Shown one piece after another: positions 8,647-64,000 of a stretch of DNA of 64,000 nt. Every line of letters begins with the position of its first letter. Position 1 is the first letter of the stretch. The notes beneath the pieces were generated by a model. The model worked only from the letters and a program-made list of their open reading frames with translations, did not search any database and was not told the origin of the DNA. The stretch is from positions 6,769-70,768 of the forward strand of contig JAQWFH010000001.1 of NCBI GenBank assembly GCA_028704515.1, read 5' to 3'. Origin of the DNA: Eubacteriales bacterium. Its GTDB lineage: Bacteria > Bacillota > Clostridia > Peptostreptococcales > Anaerovoracaceae. Position numbers and translations under genes: made by a program.

Positions 8647-11235
8647 ATGAACATAGAAAAATATACTCAAAATGCACAATCAGCGATATTAGAGTGCCAG
8701 AATATAGCCATATCGGAGGGCCATCAGCAGCTTGACGGAGAGCATCTCCATATGTCATTGCTCATGCAAAATGATGGTCTTATTCCTAAGCTGCTAAAAT
8801 CTATGGGTAAAAATGTAGCTGAAATAATAGGGGAGCTTCAAGAAGAATTGGAGAAGCTTCCAAAGGTCGGAGGAGATGCCGGGAACCTTTATTCGACGAG
8901 AAGGCTCAATCAAATTTTGCTTAATGCCGAAAAAAATGCAGAGCAATTTAAGGATGAGTATGTATCTGTAGAGCATATGTACTTGGCTCTGCTCGATGAG
9001 AAAGGGACACCATCTGCGAGAATATTTGATAGGAAATCAATAACGAAGGATAAGTTTCTCGAAGCACTGAGTAAGGTTAGAGGGAATCAGAGAGTGACCT
9101 CTCAAAATCCTGAAGAAAATTATGATGCGCTTAACAAATACGGCATAGACCTTGTCGAAATGGCAAGACAAGGAAAGCTGGACCCTGTTATAGGAAGGGA
9201 TGCCGAGATAAGGCATACCGTACAAATACTTTCGAGGAGAACAAAAAATAATCCTGTGCTGATCGGTGAGCCGGGGGTTGGTAAGACGGCAGTCGTGGAA
9301 GGTCTGGCTCAGAGAATTCTGAACAACGATGTCCCGGAAGGCCTCAAGGATAAGACGATATTTGCGCTGGATATGGGAGCGCTTATTGCAGGTGCAAAAT
9401 TCAGAGGAGAATTTGAGGAAAGACTCAAATCAGTACTCAATGAAATAGAAAAATCCGACGGAAGGATAATTTTATTTATAGATGAGATTCATAACATTGT
9501 AGGTGCCGGAAGGACAGAGGGATCCATGGATGCCGGAAACCTACTCAAACCAAAGCTTGCGAGAGGAGAGCTCCACTGTATAGGTGCAACGACGCTCGAT
9601 GAGTACAGAAAGTATATAGAAAAGGACGCAGCGCTTGAAAGACGTTTTCAAAAGGTGCTTGTAGATCAACCTACCGTGCAGGACACGGTTTCCATATTGA
9701 GAGGCCTGAAGGAAAGATTTGAAATTCATCACGGAGTGCGCATTACCGATAACGCCATCATAGCTTGTGCAGTTCTTTCGGACAGGTATATAAGCGATAG
9801 GTTTTTACCAGACAAGGCTATAGACCTCATGGATGAGGCGGCATCAATGATAAGAACCGAAATTGATTCCCTGCCTGCTGAGTTGGATGAAATTTCAAGG
9901 AAGATTATGCAGCTTGAGATTGAGCAAAAGGCGCTTTCAAAAGAAACGGACGCCGCTTCCAAGCAGAGACAGGAAAACATATCAAAAGAGCTGTCGGAAT
10001 TAAAATCGCGAAGTGACAGCATGAGAGCCCAATGGGAGTATGAAAAAAAGTCTATTGTGGATGTCAAGGCTATCAAGCAGCAGATTGAAGAGGTTAAACT
10101 TCAAATCGAAGAGGCAGAGAGAGAATATGACCTCGAAAAGCTTGCACAGCTGAGATACGGAAGCTTGCCGGAGCTGGAAAAAAGACTGGAAGAAGTTAAA
10201 GCAACGGCTGACGAGGCTGAGGAAAACAGGCTGCTCAAGGAAGAGGTCGGAGAGGAAGAAATCGCACAGGTTGTTTCTAAGTGGACGGGAATCCCCGTCA
10301 GTAAACTTGTAGAATCCGAGAGGGAAAAGCTTTTACAGCTACCGCAAATATTACACAATCGAGTAGTAGGGCAGGATGAAGCGGTAATATCGGTATCGGA
10401 AGCAGTACTTCGCGCAAGAGCGGGACTGAAGGATGAAAGAAGGCCTATAGGTTCATTTATATTCCTAGGTCCAACGGGTGTGGGCAAGACGGAATTAGCT
10501 AAAGCTCTGTCCGAATCGCTGTTTGATTCCGAGAGAAGCATGATCAGAATAGATATGTCGGAATATATGGAGAAACATTCGGTATCGAGGCTTGTGGGAG
10601 CTCCTCCGGGATATGTGGGATACGATGAAGGGGGGCAGCTTACAGAAGCTGTAAGACGTAAGCCGTACAGTGTAATTTTGTTCGATGAAATAGAAAAGGC
10701 ACATCCGGATGTATTCAACATATTACTTCAGCTGCTCGATGATGGTAGACTTACTGACAATCAAGGAAGAACGGTTGACTTCAAAAACACGATTGTTATA
10801 ATGACATCCAATTTGGGAAGCTCATATTTGATAGAGAGCATCAAGGATGACGGAAGTATTGATCCGAAAGCAAAAGAGAAAGTCACGGAAGAGATGAAAA
10901 GAGCGTTTAAGCCGGAATTCCTAAACAGAATAGATGATATTGTGGTCTTCTCGCCTCTCACATACAACCAGATTAAAAAGATTATCGATATTTCCATAAA
11001 GGGCCTTTTGACAAGACTTGAGGAGCGTAATATCAGATTGACGCTGACAGATAAAGCCAAGGGCTTTATAGCTAAGGAAAGCTATACTCCGGCATATGGA
11101 GCTAGACCTGTCAATCGTTATTTGCAAAAGCACATTGAGACTGAACTCGCTTCAAAGATCATAAAGGGCGAGATATTGGAAGGAGATAATATAACGATTG
11201 ATGAAACAGACGGTAAATTGCTATTTACTAAATAA
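8647..11235 (+). CDS. clpB: ATP-dependent chaperone/disaggregase ClpB
   Basis: 862 aa with two AAA+ modules (GEPGVGKTA and GPTGVGKTE Walker A) and a long coiled-coil middle domain. Confidence 0.95.
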
Positions 11236-11251
11236 ATATCTTGTATCAATT

Positions 11252-11280
11252 AAAAACGGACGGTTTGACCGTCCGTTTTG
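11252..11280. terminator. Bidirectional terminator (clpB / gntR operon)
   Basis: ACGGACGG-TTTGA-CCGTCCGT flanked by A5 and T4. Confidence 0.75.
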
Positions 11281-11293
11281 CAATTATTGAACT

Positions 11294-11947
11294 TTATATA
11301 CCAGCGCGCGATTTTACATTGTTCATATGTAGCGACATGGCTGCTACGCCTGATGGCAGATCACGTTCTCGCAGCGCTTCATAGATTAGTCTATGATCCT
11401 CTAAAAGATCCAAAAGGTATTCTTCAGAATTCACGGGCTTATGTCTGTATTTAATATACAGCTGGTATGAGGAAAGAAAGTGTATCAGCATTTTGTTATG
11501 AGATGCAGCATAAATTAGGCTGTGAAATTTGCTATTAATATTCTGCATCTTTGCAAAATCTCTTTTGTTGGTATAAAACTCCATGAACTCAAAAGTTTCT
11601 TCAATTTCATCGAACTCATCATGAGTCATCCGTTCTACAGCCCATTTAATGGCTTGTATTTCATATGCCTTCCTGAGTTCATACATATCGGCCATATCTT
11701 TCTCAGTAAATCCCACAACAAAAGCTCCTCTATTTGGGATGGTCTCAATGAGACCATCAATTTCAAGCTTTTGAAAGGCTTCCCTAACAGGTGTACGGCT
11801 CACTGAATAATCACTGCATATCCGTTGCTCCGTTAGCTTTTCACCGATTTTTAGCTTTTCTTGCAGTATATCGGTTCTCAGTTGTCTGAATAAGCTCTCA
11901 GATAAAGAGAGAGTTCCATCTTTATCCGGGTTGCCTTGCAAAATCAT
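11294..11947 (-). CDS. GntR family transcriptional regulator (FadR/FCD-type C-terminal domain)
   Basis: N-terminal winged-helix pattern (GEKLTEQRICSDYSVSRTPVREAF..LE..GLI) and a helical C-terminal domain. GGAGGT RBS. Confidence 0.85.
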   Translation of the reverse strand: MILQGNPDKDGTLSLSESLFRQLRTDILQEKLKIGEKLTEQRICSDYSVSRTPVREAFQKLEIDGLIETIPNRGAFVVGFTEKDMADMYELRKAYEIQAIKWAVERMTHDEFDEIEETFEFMEFYTNKRDFAKMQNINSKFHSLIYAASHNKMLIHFLSSYQLYIKYRHKPVNSEEYLLDLLEDHRLIYEALRERDLPSGVAAMSLHMNNVKSRAGI

Positions 11948-11958
11948 AAGGGTACCTC

Positions 11959-13104
11959 CTACATATTCTTCGTTGTTGCGAGAATATAATCCGAAAACTC
12001 AGAGTTAGTTGCTCCGTCAGGCTTTCCTGTCAGAACTATTTTCCTTTCTGTAATCGTGCATATATCAAGAGCCTTGGCAAGCTTGTCGGCTTGAGTTTGA
12101 TATCCTATATGGGAAAGCAACATAACTCCGGCACGCATAACGCTGCATGGATCGGCATATATTTCTCTTCCTTCTTCAACCATTCTCGGCGCAGAGCCAT
12201 GGATGGCTTCAAACATCGCATATTTATTCCCTATATTTGCGCTTCCCGCAGTTCCTACGCCTCCCTGGAATTCTGCAGCCTCATCTGTAAGGATATCCCC
12301 GTACAGGTTTGGCAGTACCAGGACTTGGAATTGAGTTCTTCTGTTAGGGTCGATAAGCTTTGCTGTCATTATATCTATATACCAGTCATCAACCTCTATA
12401 CCGGGATAATCCTTAGCAACTTCCTTACATACCTCAAGGAATTTACCGTCGGTTTTCTTCACAATATTTGCTTTTGTTACTATTGAAACCTTTGTTTTGT
12501 CGTTGTTTTTTGCATATTCAAAGGCCTGCTTTGCAATTCTTCTTGTGCCTGGGGTAGTAATGACACGAAAATCTATAGCAAGATCATCGTTAATATCGAC
12601 ACCTTGACCGCCCATTGCATAAAGACATTCCGTGTTCTCACGGAAGAAAGTCCAATCTATACCTTCATCAGGAACCTTAACAGGTCTAACATTTGCAAAT
12701 AGATCGAGTTGCTTTCTCATTTCTACATTTGCACTGTCAATGTTTCCCCATATGTCGCCCTTTCTTGGAGTCGTTGTAGGGCCTTTCAACAGAACGTGGC
12801 ACATTTTTATTTCTTCGAGAACAGAGTCAGGTATTGCCTTCTGAGCTTTTGCACGGTTTTCGATAGTCAGCCCGGTTATTGTGCGAAATTCAACCTTGCC
12901 TTCTGCAACTTCATCAGATAAAAGCTCTTCGAGAACTCTGTGGGCTTGAGCTGTAATGGCAGGACCTATACCGTCTCCACCTATAATCCCGATTATTATT
13001 TTATCAAGTTTCTTGTAATCTATGGCTACATTGTCTTGCTTGAGTTTTTCAAGGCGAACAAGCTGCTGTGATACAATGTCCGCAAATGCCTTTTGATAGT
13101 CCAT
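11959..13104 (-). CDS. icd: Isocitrate/isopropylmalate dehydrogenase family protein, probably isocitrate dehydrogenase
   Basis: Motifs SANVEMRKQLDLFANVRPV and NLYGDILTDEAA..GGVG..SANIG, FEAIHGSAP. Lies directly downstream of aconitase. Confidence 0.75.
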   Translation of the reverse strand: MDYQKAFADIVSQQLVRLEKLKQDNVAIDYKKLDKIIIGIIGGDGIGPAITAQAHRVLEELLSDEVAEGKVEFRTITGLTIENRAKAQKAIPDSVLEEIKMCHVLLKGPTTTPRKGDIWGNIDSANVEMRKQLDLFANVRPVKVPDEGIDWTFFRENTECLYAMGGQGVDINDDLAIDFRVITTPGTRRIAKQAFEYAKNNDKTKVSIVTKANIVKKTDGKFLEVCKEVAKDYPGIEVDDWYIDIMTAKLIDPNRRTQFQVLVLPNLYGDILTDEAAEFQGGVGTAGSANIGNKYAMFEAIHGSAPRMVEEGREIYADPCSVMRAGVMLLSHIGYQTQADKLAKALDICTITERKIVLTGKPDGATNSEFSDYILATTKNM

Positions 13105-13106
13105 AT

Positions 13107-15038
13107 CTATACCTCCGTCTGTGATTTTATATAATTAATTTTGCCGCCTTTTTCTATCATAGAGGTTTCAAACTCGGAGAAGCTTGTGACAGCGTTGTAT
13201 GTCTTCCCTGTTGTTTCGTTCTTCACTTTAATAATAGGATTTTTTATCTGCTCAACGGCATTTTCTATTACGAGTGTATTCCCTAATTCGATATCGTTGT
13301 AATCGTCCGCATTTTCAAATACAAGAGGCATTATTCCGCTGTTGATGAGATTAGAACGGTGTATTCTTGCGAAGGATTTTGCAATTACGAATTTTATCCC
13401 TAGGTGAAGAGGGGCAAGTGCAGCATGTTCACGGCTTGAACCCTGTCCGTAGTTGTCGCCGCCTATTATTGCACAGGCTCCGGCTTTATTGCACCTTGCC
13501 GGAAATTCGTTATCTATCTTTTCAAAGCAATAGTTTGAAAGGTGAGGTACGTTGGAACGGTAAGGCAAAAGTCTCGAATCCGAAGGCATGATGTCGTCTG
13601 TTGTTATGTTGTCTCCTGTCTTGAGGGTGACCTCTACGGTTACTTTATCAGGAAGAGCAGTATTCTTCGGGAAAGGCTTTATATTAGGCCCCATTTCTAC
13701 AGGAATGGAGGACTTTGTAGCACCTGAAGGCATGATGATAAAGCTGTCAACGGGCGGAGCTTTCACAATTTCGATGTGAGGTAGCTCGATATCTGTCGTA
13801 TTCCCATCGGTAAGAACACCGTAGATTGCAGATACTGCTGCTGTTTCCGGGCTGACAAGAAATACAGATGCATCGTTTGTGCCACTTCTGCCTTTAAAGT
13901 TTCTATTAAATGTACGAAGAGAAACAGCGCCTGATTTTGGAGACTGCCCCATACCTATGCAAGGACCGCAGGAGTTCTCAATAACTCTTGCTCCAGCTTT
14001 AATCAAGTCTGCCATAGCACCATTTTCAGCCATTTGAGCCATTATACTGCTAGAGCCCGGGCTTATTACTAGGGAAACTTCCGGATGAACCTTTCTGCCT
14101 TTAAGTATCGCAGCAACCTTCATCAAATCTGTATATGATGAATTTGTACAGCTTCCTATAGCTACCTGATCTATTTTGATATTACCTATATTTGCGACAG
14201 AATCAACATTGTCAGGACTGTGAGGCATTGCCGCAAGAGGATTAATTTCGGATAAGTCGATTTCAATCAGCTTGTCATAAATGGCATCCGCATCTGCAGA
14301 AAGTGCGACAAAGTCATCCTCTCTTCCGCGGAGCTTCAAATATTGCCTTGTGTTTTCATCGCTTGGGAAAACTGAGGTTGTAGCTCCAAGCTCTGCACCC
14401 ATATTTGTTATCGTAGCTCTGTCTGTAACGGAAAGAGTTTTTACACCTTCCCCGAAATATTCAACTATATTTCCCACACCGCCTTTAACCGTAAGAAGCT
14501 TAAGCACATGTAGTATAACGTCCTTTGCAGAGGACCAAGCGGGAAGCTTACCCGTAAGCTTGATTCCTATAACATCGGGAACGCCTAGGCTGTATGTTCC
14601 CTTTGCCATTGCAACGGCTACATCAAGCCCGCCGGCACCGATAGCGATCATCCCAAGTCCGCCTCCTGTAGGAGTATGACTGTCTGAACCGAGTAATGTC
14701 TTACCGGGGATACCGTAGTTTTCAAGATGAAGTTGATGGCATATTCCGTTTCCGGGTTTACTGAAAAGTATGCCATGACGATTTGCCACGCTTTTGATAA
14801 AGGCATGATCATCTGCATTTTCAAAGCCAGTCTGAAGAGTATTGTGGTCAATGTATGCTACAGAAATCTCGGTTTTTATTTTTTCAACATCAAGTTCTTC
14901 CAATTGAAGATAAACCATAGTACCAGTCGAATCCTGGGTAAGAGTTTGGTCTATTTTTATCGTAATTTCATTTCCTTTAGATAATTCACCCGATACCAGG
15001 TGATTTTCAAGAATTTTATATGCTAGTGTTTTCCCCAT
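13107..15038 (-). CDS. acn: Aconitate hydratase (643-aa monomeric aconitase)
   Basis: Fe-S ligand motifs GSCTNSS and CGPCIGMG, a swivel-domain signature (GxNYGQGSSREHAA) and DSHT. Confidence 0.85.
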   Translation of the reverse strand: MGKTLAYKILENHLVSGELSKGNEITIKIDQTLTQDSTGTMVYLQLEELDVEKIKTEISVAYIDHNTLQTGFENADDHAFIKSVANRHGILFSKPGNGICHQLHLENYGIPGKTLLGSDSHTPTGGGLGMIAIGAGGLDVAVAMAKGTYSLGVPDVIGIKLTGKLPAWSSAKDVILHVLKLLTVKGGVGNIVEYFGEGVKTLSVTDRATITNMGAELGATTSVFPSDENTRQYLKLRGREDDFVALSADADAIYDKLIEIDLSEINPLAAMPHSPDNVDSVANIGNIKIDQVAIGSCTNSSYTDLMKVAAILKGRKVHPEVSLVISPGSSSIMAQMAENGAMADLIKAGARVIENSCGPCIGMGQSPKSGAVSLRTFNRNFKGRSGTNDASVFLVSPETAAVSAIYGVLTDGNTTDIELPHIEIVKAPPVDSFIIMPSGATKSSIPVEMGPNIKPFPKNTALPDKVTVEVTLKTGDNITTDDIMPSDSRLLPYRSNVPHLSNYCFEKIDNEFPARCNKAGACAIIGGDNYGQGSSREHAALAPLHLGIKFVIAKSFARIHRSNLINSGIMPLVFENADDYNDIELGNTLVIENAVEQIKNPIIKVKNETTGKTYNAVTSFSEFETSMIEKGGKINYIKSQTEV

Positions 15039-59086: not shown

Positions 59087-59760
59087 CTATTGTACATGCT
59101 CCACGCTCACATAGTCAATGCTTTTATCAAAGCTTTCTCTGTCATCGATAAAAAATCGAAACCTTGCCTTGCAGTTGGGCGATTCGTGAATAAATCGATT
59201 CATATTGCCTTTGTCCGGAGCAAACAGCTCATGTCCCGCTTCAGGCGAAACCGTTATTTGCAGTCGGAATCTCCCTTGCTCAATTTCGATGCATTCAAGG
59301 GAGTTCTTTAATATCCGAACCCCCTTATAAGTCGCAAGACGATATTCCTTGCCTTGCCAATATACGATACAAATACATCCGGTAAAATGTCTGCGCATAA
59401 ATGGTACTTTTGCGATTGCTAACATTACCGAGCACGGATCATCATCATGCTTAAAGCTGTTACATTGTATCCAAGTGTAATTCTCGGGGAAGGAGTGACC
59501 TCGATCTCCTTCGGCATATCCCTTTCCGCCGGTCAGGTTAACGACTTGCCCGTTAATCTTAAATTCGCCCTCGACATCATGGTCGAGACTTATTATGCTA
59601 TGTCTGCATTCCATCGGGAAATATCGGAAAAACCCCATAATAACGTATGAAATGGGGGGGTCATGTTAAGATAGCGAGCAGAGCCCTCAATAGATAATTG
59701 CTTTGTATTTATATTTAGTTGGACACCGTATTTTCCAAAGGTATTGTCGCAAGCATAATA
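59087..59760 (-). pseudogene. Tocopherol-cyclase-like family gene remnant: 5'-truncated and frameshifted at a C7 tract
   Basis: The ORF 59087-59638 starts at MGFFRYFPMECRHSIISLDH...GGKGYAEGDRGHSFPENYTWIQCN, which I recall as the mid-region of bacterial tocopherol-cyclase-like proteins. Upstream, a different frame reads YYACDNTFGKYGVQLNINTKQLSIEGSARYLNMTPP without any start codon. The two frames meet at GGGGGGG (59654-59660). Confidence 0.45.
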
Positions 59761-59799
59761 TCATCCTTTTGGCGTTTGTAATAGCACCCTTCAAAATAC

Positions 59800-61116
59800 T
59801 TACTCAACAGAAATACTCCTCTTTGCAGGATTGTTGATGATAGCACCATGATTATCAAATCGAGATCCGTGACATGGGCAATCCCAGGATTGCTCGGCTT
59901 TGTTCCATTTGAGAGCGCAACCCATATGCGAGCAACGCTTGCCCGGCTTTATCAGATTAATCACCGCGTTTACGCCGTTGACGGCAAGTTGTGGGCGTAA
60001 AATTGAGCGTTGAGGAGAAAACAGGTCCTCATAATCGCTTTTTTTATGATTAATCAAATCAAAGAGAATGTCGGCCGCAACCATAGAACTTGTCATTCCC
60101 CATTTCTTGAAGCCGGTGGCCACATAGATATTTGGTCTTGATTTTGTTAAGACACCGATATATGGGATATCATCGAGTGTCATACAATCCTGTGCTGACC
60201 ACGCATATTTTTCGGTGCAATGCGGGTACGCTTTTCTTGCAAGCTTTCGAAGCTCATCGTACTGCCCGCCGGTCTTTCCTGTTTTGTGATCGCCGCCTCC
60301 GATAAACAAAAGGTTTTTATAATTTCTGAAGGAATGACCGTCTTCTCTTTCGTCGACATACATACCGTCGAGTTGAGGACCGTTATCTAGAGCTATTACG
60401 TAAGAACGATTTTGATACATTTTAAGAAAATAAAGTCCGGGGATATTGATAAAAGGAAAATGAGTGGCAAGGATTATATGCTTTGCGGTTACAGATCCTT
60501 TTTCAACATATGCAGTGTTTCCTTCTATTTTACTTACAAAAGCGTTTTCATAGATATTTAAGCCCGAAGATATGCCGTAGAGAAATTTAAGCGGATTGAA
60601 TTGCGCCTGATCCTTCATGCCGATAGCTCCCACAATCTTAAGCGGTAGCGGCGCGCTTTCGGAAAAAAGAGGCATTATAGATAATTTGTCGTATGCCTTT
60701 GCTTCAGCCTCAAGCTTTTGGCGGTTAGCAGTGCTGTAGGTATATGCCGTCTTTTTTTCAAAATCAAATTCGAAGAGATCTGACAACCTCTCGTATTCTT
60801 TGTATGCCTTCATGTTTGCGTCATAATATTTTCGGGCTTTTTCAATACCAAAGCTTTTGATGAGCTTATCGTAAATTAAGCCATGCTGTGCAGTTATTTT
60901 CGCAGTAGTCACTCCCGTAACCCCTGAGCCGATATGTTTTGCCTCCGCCAATATATAATCTATGCCAGCCTCCTGCAGCTTATATGCGCACAATATGCCG
61001 ACCAATCCACCACCTATAATGAGCACATCGGTTTTCCTCTCTCCCGTAAGGGGAGCAAGGTTGGTCAGCTTTGGACTTCCGGATTCCTCATGCCAAACAG
61101 ATGAAATGGGAAACAC
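59800..61116 (-). CDS. FAD-dependent oxidoreductase (DAO family) fused to a C-terminal Rieske [2Fe-2S] domain (YhfW-like)
   Basis: N-terminal dinucleotide fold DVLIIGGGLVGILCAYKL. C-terminal Rieske ligands CSHMGC ... CPCHGSRF. Confidence 0.8.
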   Translation of the reverse strand: MFPISSVWHEESGSPKLTNLAPLTGERKTDVLIIGGGLVGILCAYKLQEAGIDYILAEAKHIGSGVTGVTTAKITAQHGLIYDKLIKSFGIEKARKYYDANMKAYKEYERLSDLFEFDFEKKTAYTYSTANRQKLEAEAKAYDKLSIMPLFSESAPLPLKIVGAIGMKDQAQFNPLKFLYGISSGLNIYENAFVSKIEGNTAYVEKGSVTAKHIILATHFPFINIPGLYFLKMYQNRSYVIALDNGPQLDGMYVDEREDGHSFRNYKNLLFIGGGDHKTGKTGGQYDELRKLARKAYPHCTEKYAWSAQDCMTLDDIPYIGVLTKSRPNIYVATGFKKWGMTSSMVAADILFDLINHKKSDYEDLFSPQRSILRPQLAVNGVNAVINLIKPGKRCSHMGCALKWNKAEQSWDCPCHGSRFDNHGAIINNPAKRSISVE

Positions 61117-61290
61117 CTCCTTCGTTGATAGGGTATATACATTTTATTACTATGAAATGCTGCATTTTTTATGAAATTATTGTCCACATTACATGCCGCA
61201 TTATTTATTAATTAAATTCCCCGAATTAGTTCACCTTATGCGCTTATAAAGAAAGTTTCATTTGTTGGTGCAACGTAAAAAGTTGTGTTT

Positions 61291-61319
61291 TTTACATGCA
61301 CATGCTAATATGTTATAAA
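61291..61319 (+). promoter_or_regulatory. Candidate SigA-type promoter for the aminotransferase-ortAB operon
   Basis: TTTACA - 17 nt - TATAAA, about 115 nt upstream of the ATG. Confidence 0.4.
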
Positions 61320-61433
61320 GCGATAAAGTCAAAAAGATTTTAAATAAAAATTCATTATCTATTTATTCTCGTGTAAAAGCAAATTGAGTAAAAGTGTTTA
61401 AAGTTAGAAGTCAAGTCACAAAGGAGGGGTTGA

Positions 61434-62786
61434 ATGAATATCATTACAGACAAAACAAGGACAATTATTGAAGAAGAAGAAAAATATACTTCGTTTACAA
61501 CAAGAGTGCCTTATTACCCTTTAGTTGTAAGCAAAGCAAAAGGAGTTAAGGTTATCGACATTGAAGGCAATGAGTTCATCGATTTTCTGTCAAGTGCGGC
61601 TGTTATTAATACAGGGCATAATCATCCGGCAATCGTAGAAGCGATAAAAAAACAGCTGGATTCATTTATTCACTACACACCGGCTTACATGTATCACAAG
61701 CCACACACCGAATTAACGAAGAAATTGATCGAAATCACACCGGGTGACTTTGAAAAAAGAGTGGCATTTAGCTTATCGGGGGGCGGATCCGTCGACGGAG
61801 CGATTAAAGCTGCAAGAAAGTATACAAAGAGGCATCGGATAATTTCATTCTTCAAGGCATACCACGGTGCAAGTATAGGAGCATTGAGCGTCTCGGGGTA
61901 CAGCACAGCTATGAGAGAAGGAATGGGGCCGCTCCTTGAAGATGTTACATTCATACCATATCCGGACAGCTATCGCCCTCAATTCAACGAAGAATTAATT
62001 AAAAACAGCGACGCATGTTTGGATTATCTACAAAATTTATTTGATACAGTATTACCTGCAAATGAAGTGGCGGCAGTTATTTTGGAACCGATGCAAGGAG
62101 ATGCCGGCATCTTGTTACCGCCTCAAGAATTCTACGATAGATTGCTTAAAATGTGCAGGGAACATAATATATTAATAATTGCCGATGAAGTTCAAACCGG
62201 CTTTGGTAGAACAGGAAAAATGTTTGCATGTGAGCATTACAATTTGGAGCCGGACCTGATTGTATTGGGTAAAGCAATAGCGTCAGGTATGCCGCTAAGT
62301 GCAATCGTGGGTCGAAAAGAGATACTTGAGGCATGGAGCGCACCTGCGCATTTTATTAATACTGCCGGGAATCCGATATCCTGTGTAGCGGCATTGGAAA
62401 CTATAAAGGTAATTGAAGAAGAAAAACTAGCGGAAAATGCGGAGAAGCAAGGTGAATTAATTAAAGACTTTTTTAATAAAATAAAAAGGAAATATGATTG
62501 TATCGGAGATGTAAGAGGAACCGGGCTATTAATAGGCGTGGACATAATTAAAGATCCTATCAGCAAGGAGAGAGACCAAGTAAAAACTGCAAAAATTTGT
62601 TGGAGATGCTGGGAAAACGGCTTAATATTGGCGTTCTTTGCATCAAATGTATTGAGAATAGCTCCTCCTCTAGTAATAAATGAAGAGGATGTGATGAAAG
62701 CTCTGCATATTATAGAAAATGCTATATCGGATGTTCAGAACGGATTGATTCCGGACAGCGTTTTGGAAGAAATTAAAGGATGGTAG
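61434..62786 (+). CDS. Class-III (omega) pyridoxal-phosphate-dependent aminotransferase
   Basis: 450 aa. GHNHP, SGGGSVDGAIK, ADEVQTGFGRTGKMFA, and a PLP-Lys region LGKAIASGMPLSA. Confidence 0.85.
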   Translation: MNIITDKTRTIIEEEEKYTSFTTRVPYYPLVVSKAKGVKVIDIEGNEFIDFLSSAAVINTGHNHPAIVEAIKKQLDSFIHYTPAYMYHKPHTELTKKLIEITPGDFEKRVAFSLSGGGSVDGAIKAARKYTKRHRIISFFKAYHGASIGALSVSGYSTAMREGMGPLLEDVTFIPYPDSYRPQFNEELIKNSDACLDYLQNLFDTVLPANEVAAVILEPMQGDAGILLPPQEFYDRLLKMCREHNILIIADEVQTGFGRTGKMFACEHYNLEPDLIVLGKAIASGMPLSAIVGRKEILEAWSAPAHFINTAGNPISCVAALETIKVIEEEKLAENAEKQGELIKDFFNKIKRKYDCIGDVRGTGLLIGVDIIKDPISKERDQVKTAKICWRCWENGLILAFFASNVLRIAPPLVINEEDVMKALHIIENAISDVQNGLIPDSVLEEIKGW

Positions 62787-62815
62787 GTTAACAGCCTCGG
62801 AAAGGAAGGATTAAA

Positions 62816-63103
62816 ATGGTCAGTAAAGGAACATTTGTAAGGATTGAAAAGACGATCCTCGAACCGCAAGAGAGAACATCAAAAATCCCTGATGACACTA
62901 AAAAGGTTCCGTTCAAAATGTGGACAAAGGGGGTGCTGCAGCATGACTGCGAGTTGAACGCAGAAGCCACAATTGTAACTGTTGCAAATCGCCGGGACAC
63001 TGGCAAATTAGTTGAAGTAAATCCATTTTATGAATTGAATTACGGAGAGTTTTTACCTGAAATTACGGAGATTGATAGGGTGATTAAAAATGAAAGAAAA
63101 TAA
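62816..63103 (+). CDS. ortA: 2-amino-4-ketopentanoate thiolase alpha subunit (OrtA)-like
   Basis: 95 aa. The pattern V.I....L.P.ER....P.DTKKVP..MW.KG......E.G........R...G.LVE.NP matches my recollection of OrtA. It overlaps the next gene by 14 nt. Confidence 0.65.
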   Translation: MVSKGTFVRIEKTILEPQERTSKIPDDTKKVPFKMWTKGVLQHDCELNAEATIVTVANRRDTGKLVEVNPFYELNYGEFLPEITEIDRVIKNERK

Positions 63104-64000
63104 AAATTTATATGAACAAGTAATGTCACGTAGAGAGGAAATCCTCAATAAGGCGTTGGGTGTTGATTTCGACAAATATGAGATTGAAGGTATTGCCTTT
63201 GATTATGAAAAATATATGGAGGAGACCGCATACTCATTGGAGGAGGTTGCCAAAATCCAAAAGGAAAACGGAGTGGGCAATACACCTCTTATAGAACTTA
63301 AGAATATAACCGCGCTTGCTCGTAAATATGCTCCCGAAGGCAAGGGCGCTCGGATTTTCATAAAGGATGAGGCCTGCAATATTTCCGGCTCATTCAAGGA
63401 AAGACGCGCGTCTATAAGTGCTTATCATGCAAAGAAGAAGGGATACAAGGGGGTTATTGCAGCAACGTCGGGGAATTATGGGGCTGCCGTAGCCGCACAA
63501 GCTGCAAAACAAGGCTTGGATTGTATTGTTATCCAGGAGTGCTATGATTCAAATCAAGTAGGTCAGCCCGAAATTATTGAAAAGGCCAGAAAATGTGAGG
63601 CTTTAGGTGCTGAGGTAATTCAGACAAGCGTAGGTCCGGAATTATTTTTCGAAGCACTGCAGATTTTGGATGAAACGGGCTTCTTTAACGCATCGTTGTA
63701 TTCATCATTTGGAATTGCTGGAGTTGAAACTCTTGGGCAGGAAATAGCGGTCGAATGTATGGACAAATTTAATAAATATCCCGAAGCCGTCGTGTGCACC
63801 AATGCCGGTGGAGGAAACCTGACAGGTACTGCTCGCGGATTAATAAAGAGCGGTGCATCAGAAACAAGAGTCATAGCCGCATCTGTAAACCTTAAGGGGC
63901 TTCATATGGCGAGTGATAATGATTTTAACAGAAAGTCATTCACTACCGGTCATACGGGCTTCGGTATTCCGTACGCAACATACCCGGATCGAAGTGATGT
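63090..64000 (+). CDS. ortB: 2-amino-4-ketopentanoate thiolase beta subunit (OrtB)-like, PLP-dependent Trp-synthase-beta fold; 3'-partial (runs off the window)
   Basis: An open frame from the ATG at 63090 to the window end with no stops. It is absent from the ORF track because it is open-ended. GNTPLIELKN, the PLP-Lys motif SGSFKERRA, and ATSGNYGAAVA. Confidence 0.75.
   Translation, partial: MKENKNLYEQVMSRREEILNKALGVDFDKYEIEGIAFDYEKYMEETAYSLEEVAKIQKENGVGNTPLIELKNITALARKYAPEGKGARIFIKDEACNISGSFKERRASISAYHAKKKGYKGVIAATSGNYGAAVAAQAAKQGLDCIVIQECYDSNQVGQPEIIEKARKCEALGAEVIQTSVGPELFFEALQILDETGFFNASLYSSFGIAGVETLGQEIAVECMDKFNKYPEAVVCTNAGGGNLTGTARGLIKSGASETRVIAASVNLKGLHMASDNDFNRKSFTTGHTGFGIPYATYPDRSD

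Follow-up and report, generated by a model that had tools for sequence, protein, structure and literature searches.

Near the 3' end of the window, by which we mean the whole 64,000-nucleotide stretch of Anaerovoracaceae DNA analysed here (contig JAQWFH010000001.1 of assembly GCA_028704515.1), the genes for the two subunits of 2-amino-4-oxopentanoate (AKP) thiolase, ortA and ortB, are preceded by a gene for a pyridoxal phosphate (PLP)-dependent enzyme of the class-III aminotransferase fold. The operon belongs neither to the canonical ornithine cluster nor to the route fed by the glycyl radical enzyme (GRE) HplG, as the genes that define these two routes were searched for and not found. It is likely that a racemase-type enzyme is coupled here to OrtAB outside ornithine fermentation. 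That the three genes form a self-contained catabolic operon, in which a racemase/epimerase of the class-III fold works with OrtAB independently of ornithine fermentation, is a reading to which we give an even chance, and the specific assignment of the enzyme as an AKP epimerase is more tentative, falling somewhat short of even.

A three-gene operon that ends at ortB

The window sits on a 94-kb contig, the continuation of which was examined as locus L001 (a window coordinate is the L001 coordinate plus 60000). Three forward-strand open reading frames (ORFs) are read here, the last of them open at the window end (Table 1), and their coordinates bear out the layout described in the first-pass annotation, in which a class-III gene lies 29 nt before ortA in the same orientation and ortA and ortB overlap by 14 nt. 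The first gene stops with a TAG at 62784-62786, and the spacer that follows carries a strong ribosome-binding site, GGAAAGGAAGG, positioned 8 nt 5' of the ortA ATG; no terminator-like site was found in 62787..62815. The ATG of ortB at 63090 lies inside ortA, which has its stop codon at 63101-63103. The class-III gene had been taken for an operon partner of ortAB, and it is a real one: in a relative with 88% identity (L181), its stop overlaps the start of ortA, the two genes sharing 7 nt.

The cluster had also been expected to run on beyond the window. Only ortB does so, with the first 303 of its 471 codons inside the window and its end 505 nt past it, after which a convergent crp/fnr-type regulator gene ends 3 nt past the ortB stop. 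The canonical ord-oraSE-orr set considered as a possible continuation was looked for immediately downstream and is not there. Because of the convergent crp/fnr gene 3' of ortB and a divergent gene for a DAO-Rieske fusion across a 317-nt spacer on the other side, the operon is defined as three tightly packed genes ending at ortB. No transporter gene and no gene for a feeder enzyme is encoded within it.

Both thiolase genes are genuine, as first annotated, with profile matches above curated cut-offs. OrtA matches PF22010 (E = 1.6e-34, 118 bits, cut-off 27) and NF040739 (111.5 bits, cut-off 70), and full-length OrtB (471 aa) matches the equivalog NF040741 with 794 bits (cut-off 550). OrtB keeps 153 of 158 near-invariant OrtB columns, with changes at five such positions, and contains the SFKER PLP-lysine motif. 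Between the window and L181, the proportion of nonsynonymous differences (pN) is 0.06-0.09 in all three genes against a synonymous proportion (pS) of 0.74-0.82, at which synonymous sites are saturated. This contrast indicates that purifying selection acts strongly on each of the three genes and maintains the operon.

Absence of the ornithine pathway

The oxidative L-ornithine cluster of Acetoanaerobium (Clostridium) sticklandii and Clostridioides difficile is made up of orr, oraS, oraE, ord, ortA, and ortB, as summarised in PMC8803604 after Fonknechten et al. 2009. The assembly that contains the window is 98.2% complete. Profile searches of this genome gave no match to the Ord family and no PF16552 match for OraS, the control for the latter search being uninformative. 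A canonical cluster from within the family supplied seeds for Ord, OraS, OraE, the GlmL-like protein, and Orr, which were verified against NCBIfam, and tblastn of the genome with the first four gave no matches. An Orr-like gene is found on another contig and not near ortAB, with 41% identity and a score of 377 bits (cut-off 480). This fold-type-III racemase gene directly follows two tandem genes for AMP-forming acyl-CoA ligases on the same strand (L178:7983-12645, minus strand, contig C29), with no other ornithine-pathway gene beside it.

The possession of ortAB without the ornithine route is exceptional for the lineage. Within the order, 167 of 251 genomes encode OrtB, and every one of 24 sampled OrtB-carrying genomes of the same family has Ord above cut-off. 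Canonical clusters, which read sigma-54 regulator - ord - ortA - ortB - oraS - oraE - glmL-like - orr, were found at 17 of 20 loci fetched from same-family genomes, and 27 more came from other families of the order, giving 44 in total. No class-III gene lies within 9 kb of any of the 44, in line with the first-pass view that no aminotransferase leads the known ornithine clusters. The operon is like the ornithine cluster in that its ortA and ortB belong to the same equivalog families and presumably serve the thiolysis of AKP to acetyl-CoA and alanine. It differs in being led by a class-III-fold, racemase-like gene, and in residing in a genome that lacks ord, oraS, oraE, and the glmL-like gene, and has only a sub-threshold Orr-like gene elsewhere.

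The class-III-fold enzyme as a probable racemase or epimerase

The 450-aa product of the first gene matches PF00202 (Aminotran_3) with E = 1e-117. Its nearest NCBIfam model is PRK08360, at 594 bits under a cut-off of 608. When ranked against solved structures, the list is headed by racemases of the class-III fold: the broad-specificity amino-acid racemase (BAR; 9wrf, 406 bits), the isoleucine 2-epimerase of L. buchneri (ILEP; 405 bits), and the Ala/Ser racemase of P. horikoshii (ASR; 9wqz, 375 bits). Lower scores are seen for the P. horikoshii ornithine aminotransferase (7vno, 320 bits), amino-acid amide racemase (294 bits), ACL racemase (272 bits), and GabT (271 bits).

Detailed work on ILEP has shown that K280 forms the Schiff base and that D222 is the residue nearest the C-alpha of D-allo-Ile; the D222A/N mutants of ILEP are inactive, as are K291A and D234A in the Ala/Ser racemase (PMC6047364). 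The motifs EPMQGDAG and VLGKAIASG of the window protein align with ILEP, BAR, and ASR, placing Asp223 and Lys280 at the positions of ILEP D222 and K280. Its predicted key residues are Lys280, Asp223, and Arg408, of which Lys280, the Schiff-base lysine, also aligns with K268 of GabT. Residues were surveyed across 99 sequences, comprising 95 homologues and four references. The site of ILEP D222, equivalent to Glu211 of GabT, is Glu in E. coli GabT and in 73 of the 77 homologues with at most 41% identity, and Asp in the three racemases, in the window protein, and in all 14 homologues with at least 53% identity. The amino-acid amide and ACL racemases also have Asp at this site, and thus all five characterised class-III-fold racemases share it. 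In GabT, Arg141 anchors the distal carboxylate, and 73/77 of the transaminase-like sequences keep it. The racemases show Ser, Met, or Gln at this position, and members of the window's clade show Ala, Thr, or Asn, Ala being that of the window protein. At the position of GabT Ile50, Ala is found both in the racemases and in the window's clade. In sum, the window protein has the class-III fold with its Schiff-base lysine and is missing the Glu211 and Arg141 pair by which the 4-aminobutyrate aminotransferase type handles dicarboxylates.

In a quick maximum-likelihood tree, the OrtAB-linked clade (SH-like approximate likelihood ratio test, SH-aLRT, 90) falls inside a clade with an SH-aLRT of 97 that holds ASR, BAR, and ILEP, with GabT and a transaminase-like group from Acidobacteriota standing outside; long branches of the reference sequences make the order within the larger clade uncertain. 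Because of the catalytic-residue pattern and this phylogeny, the first gene most likely encodes a racemase/epimerase. The original label of class-III aminotransferase is thus correct for the fold, but a transaminase function is disfavoured by the Asp in place of Glu211, the absence of Arg141, and the position within the racemase clade. The likeness to ILEP, BAR, and ASR extends from the shared fold, with about 405 bits to solved structures, to the Lys/Asp pair and the same pattern at GabT positions 50, 141, and 211. The differences are that none of those racemases is known to be linked to OrtAB and that the window's clade forms a separate bacterial branch.

The same genome carries a paralogue of the racemase-like gene on contig C67 (L083:7081-8418, minus strand). 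It is 44% identical, with the motif IAGDA and the Asp conserved, and it heads a same-strand run of two genes for proteins without a family match and then one for a HisC-like aminotransferase. One family member (G213) has an orthologue.

Linkage to ortAB in relatives

Homologues of 53-88% identity are encoded at 20 loci, which come from metagenome-assembled genomes (MAGs) of Sedimentibacter, Tissierellaceae, Peptoniphilaceae, and Clostridiaceae, from Alkaliphilus metalliredigens QYMF, Oceanobacillus, Bacillus, and Neobacillus, and from several metagenome contigs. At 18 of these loci the racemase gene directly adjoins ortA-ortB, preceding it at some and following it at others, and at one of the two exceptions the sequence ends 0.6 kb past the gene. 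The racemase tree needs only one origin of the association to account for the 18 linked loci. Judged by this distribution, the racemase-like gene is a dedicated partner of OrtAB. The new element is a conserved triad of OrtA, OrtB, and the racemase-like enzyme; no paper linking OrtAB with a class-III-fold enzyme was found in the literature searched.

The triad is found in several arrangements. Type a reads (sigma-54 activator) - GRE - activase - ortA - ortB - racemase - Na:alanine-symporter-family carrier, in varying order, and the loci of A. metalliredigens and one Sedimentibacter add an FAH-family hydrolase, a class-I/II aminotransferase, and an HpcH aldolase. Type b, the minimal form, is Na:alanine carrier - GntR - racemase - ortA - ortB. 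Type c, seen in three Bacillaceae, is ortA - ortB - racemase - GntR - ABC importer - HcnABC/opine-oxidase-like flavoprotein genes. The window and L181 have the three genes only. Genomes with type a carry a canonical ornithine cluster elsewhere, and Ord is absent, as in the window's genome, from those behind the minimal and Bacillaceae forms (four other minimal-arrangement genomes counted). The racemase tree places the gene of the window within those of type a, so that the three-gene form probably arose from a GRE-type cluster through loss, or failed transfer, of the feeder genes.

The window OrtB falls outside the clade of its own family in the OrtB trees, and racemase-linked OrtBs are placed in at least three positions, which indicates that OrtAB partners have been exchanged. 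Convergent OrtB substitutions were considered as a mark of the racemase-linked copies and set aside, the patterns being conservative and partial (e.g., I147V in 9/11).

Among the Bacillaceae, the ortA-ortB-racemase-GntR genes of Neobacillus niacini (L012:10447-17217) and of L011 are followed by a PotD-type ABC importer and then by a four-gene set resembling HcnABC, opine oxidase, and D-hydroxyproline dehydrogenase (Fer2_4, Pyr_redox_2, BFD, and DAO domains). The set hints that OrtAB is fed by an oxidative route that tolerates oxygen in these aerobes. On one MAG contig (L003:802-4475 and 10908-14581), a segment of about 3.7 kb with ortA, ortB, and a sigma-54 activator occurs twice, 10 kb apart. 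The two OrtB copies agree in length, N-terminus, and identity to the window OrtB, and the repeat may be a real duplication or have arisen in assembly.

Glycyl radical enzymes and other settings of ortAB

A known second source of AKP for OrtAB is the trans-4-hydroxy-D-proline C-N lyase HplG (PDB 7VUA) (PMC13450708). For the GRE of the type-a clusters the best score is 585 bits, to glycerol dehydratase; several other eliminases give 499-544 and HplG (7vua) gives 368, and the enzyme is below every NCBIfam equivalog cut-off. Because of these scores under all equivalog cut-offs and the low match to HplG, the enzyme is, by sequence comparison, not HplG and is uncharacterised as far as a June 2026 review goes (PMC13450708). 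It may be a new AKP-forming enzyme. Clusters of this type lie at L002:2587-5767, at L182:4072-7243, and at L146 in A. metalliredigens QYMF (G201:C1, approximately 524.7-528 kb). The HplG route shows that OrtAB can draw on a source other than ornithine, and the relatives of the window operon resemble it in pairing OrtAB with a GRE and activase. They differ from it in the identity of the GRE, and the window operon differs further in having no GRE at all.

The window's genome has no orthologue of the type-a GRE and no HplG linked to ortAB. Its single non-PFL GRE is CutC-like, with 754 bits under a cut-off of 1050 and 33% identity to the type-a GRE, and scores 387 bits to 7vua versus 726 to CutC. 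It is encoded with an activase on another contig, next to an NhaC-type carrier (L082:6459-9771, minus strand, contig C1), and is probably an uncharacterised eliminase. Orthologues with 66-77% identity occur in three family genomes. One of these, G101, carries a canonical ornithine cluster and lacks any close orthologue of the racemase-like gene, and the CutC-like enzyme was accordingly rejected as a candidate AKP feeder.

Other settings of ortAB were also seen. In a same-family genome with Ord on another contig, ortA-ortB is flanked by three GRE paralogues that are about 30% identical to the type-a enzyme (L122, G131:C21, 3687-13030). Second copies of ortAB are found at L141:5261-12111 and nine further loci (L137, L139, L143, L145, L149, L151, L153, L155, and L159) in genomes that also carry a canonical ornithine cluster. 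These units consist of an SBP_bac_3-domain sensor kinase, an NtrC-type sigma-54 regulator, ortA-ortB, and an NhaC-type carrier, with no further genes, and the racemase-like gene is found at none of the ten. Of their OrtBs, nine group with some racemase-linked OrtBs in a clade apart from the canonical copies.

Proposed pathway and alternatives

AKP in the known pathway has the (2R) configuration (PMC11164908). Because the OrtAB of known pathways uses this D-isomer, the racemase would most likely convert an L-configured 2-amino-4-oxo acid to the D-form, filling the chirality-inverting role held by Orr in the ornithine route. With CoA, OrtAB would then cleave AKP or a closely related 2-amino-4-oxo acid, yielding acetyl-CoA (or an acyl-CoA) and alanine, and ATP would be gained via acetyl phosphate. 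For the OrtAB of the window, CoA- and PLP-dependent cleavage of (2R)-AKP to acetyl-CoA and D-alanine would be the expected reaction. In the relatives, the L-form would be made by the adjacent GRE or imported by the Na:alanine-family carrier. The substrate-side role is favoured because the known routes each contain one inverting step, Orr in the ornithine route; the HplG route is reported to use an epimerase, and the racemase-like gene occurs only in ortAB clusters without an inverting step of their own. Taken further, it is possible, if rather less than an even bet, that there is a third route to acetyl-CoA and alanine via AKP, consisting of a new GRE (in many anaerobes, including A. metalliredigens QYMF) or uptake, an AKP 2-epimerase, and OrtAB, of which the window would hold a stripped-down scavenging version with a diverged OrtAB.

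Several points weigh against this proposal. The racemase activity of the clade is predicted from residues and phylogeny, and Asp at the D222 site may still allow transamination. The preference for the substrate side over the product side is indirect. The operon supplies neither a feeder nor a transporter for AKP or its L-isomer. Finally, OrtB of the window lineage is on an unusually long stem, with 0.95 substitutions per site when shared with L181 and 1.23 when the window stands alone, against a median branch of 0.12-0.17 in the OrtB trees, and its substrate may thus be other than AKP.

The last point leads to an alternative raised in the first-pass annotation, namely that OrtAB acts on a different amino-keto acid. 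In this reading OrtAB would have changed its specificity after loss of the feeder genes, and the racemase would epimerise another 2-amino-4-oxo acid. The other minimal pair, L008 and L185, has a stem of 0.53 where the median branch is 0.17, and the five changes at near-invariant OrtB positions in a gene that remains under strong purifying selection would suit such a shift. The OrtB score far over the equivalog cut-off and the near-complete retention of invariant columns point the other way, the neighbourhood yields no candidate for the alternative compound, and we consider this explanation improbable. It is also conceivable, although unlikely, that the enzyme acts on the product side as an alanine racemase, turning the D-alanine released by OrtAB into L-alanine for deamination to pyruvate. 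The fold does include a characterised Ala/Ser racemase, and genes of the Na:alanine symporter family often lie close by in relatives. Such a role nevertheless seems unnecessary, because the genome has an Alr homologue elsewhere and the ten transporter-type ortAB loci, like the 44 canonical clusters, operate without a dedicated racemase; moreover, the 450-aa protein resembles BAR and ILEP at least as closely as it does the Ala/Ser racemase.

Alternatively, the enzyme may be a genuine aminotransferase that forms or consumes the OrtAB substrate, either by converting 2,4-diaminopentanoate to AKP or by interconverting AKP and 2,4-dioxopentanoate (acetylpyruvate). This would agree with the fold and with the ornithine aminotransferase 7vno, a member of the archaeal subgroup, among the structure matches, and the acylpyruvate-hydrolase-like FAH gene and HpcH aldolase in some relatives' clusters suggest that 2-oxo acids are handled there. 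Those clusters, however, hold a separate class-I/II aminotransferase able to transaminate, and the window protein has the Asp of the five characterised racemases and no Arg141, while GabT and 73/77 of the transaminase-like homologues have Glu and Arg. The first-pass suggestion of an enzyme that stands in for Ord through transamination of 2,4-diaminopentanoate is also unsupported: the genome has no OraS or OraE to make that compound, and the protein nests among racemases. We therefore assign a low probability to an aminotransferase and retain a racemase/epimerase acting ahead of OrtAB as the preferred reading.

Features of the operon and its surroundings

Table 1. Features of the ortAB operon and its upstream region (window coordinates unless another locus is named).
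Feature	Coordinates	Strand	Basis or remarks
DAO-Rieske fusion and short tocopherol-cyclase-like ORF	59087-61116	-	ORF of 183 aa, matching only the C-terminal half of its family
DAO-Rieske flavoprotein fusion, 438 aa	59800-61116	-	divergent from operon; syntenic in L181
Upstream intergenic region	61117..61433	.	317 nt, AT-rich, between divergent DAO-Rieske gene and operon
Class-III-fold (fold-type I) PLP enzyme, predicted racemase/epimerase of ILEP/BAR/ASR group, 450 aa	61434..62786	+	PF00202, PDB ranking, residues, tree
Spacer with ortA ribosome-binding site	62787..62815	+	29 nt
ortA, small subunit of AKP thiolase, 95 aa	62816..63103	+	PF22010, NF040739
ortB, PLP-dependent large subunit of AKP thiolase	63090..64000 (full gene L001:3090-4505)	+	NF040741

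The promoter of the operon is presumably located in the upstream intergenic region, where a consensus scan found weak sigma-70-like sites only. A riboswitch and a sigma-54 promoter were considered and set aside, as no Rfam family matches this region and inspection by eye gave no -24/-12 element. Base composition carries no signal of a recent horizontal transfer of the operon, with a GC content of 0.38-0.42 that is similar to the flanks. Beyond the crp/fnr gene follow hcp (hybrid-cluster protein), spoVG, purR, murC, a GlmU-like acetyltransferase gene, prs, and pth. The ORF after murC (L001:10756-11460, window-equivalent 70756-71460) aligns to GlmU only over the C-terminal acetyltransferase half (model positions 237-447), and no uridyltransferase domain was seen in that frame.

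The DAO-Rieske gene was considered and rejected as a pathway partner. Homologues with 44-58% identity occur in five other family genomes with neither the aminotransferase-fold gene nor ortAB nearby, one family homologue keeps its own tocopherol-cyclase-like neighbour, and the gene is unrelated to the DAO gene of the Bacillaceae clusters. Its adjacency to the operon is probably lineage-specific. The DAO-Rieske and tocopherol-cyclase-like genes are also adjacent in another same-family genome (L191), and the pair appears to be independent of the ortAB operon.

Significance

Oxidative ornithine fermentation is routinely recognised by OrtAB as its marker, as in studies of C. difficile colonisation. 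Here, an intact and selected OrtAB is tied to a racemase-like PLP enzyme in a genome without an ornithine-derived supply of substrate. The joining of OrtAB to this enzyme, with the rest of the ornithine pathway missing, suggests that the thiolase is served by an undescribed substrate source. If this is true, calling ornithine fermentation from ortAB alone would be unsafe, and many database entries named "4-aminobutyrate aminotransferase" or "aspartate aminotransferase family protein" would be racemases or epimerases. The recurrent cluster of GRE, activase, ortAB, racemase, and Na:alanine carrier would, in turn, mark an uncharacterised GRE.

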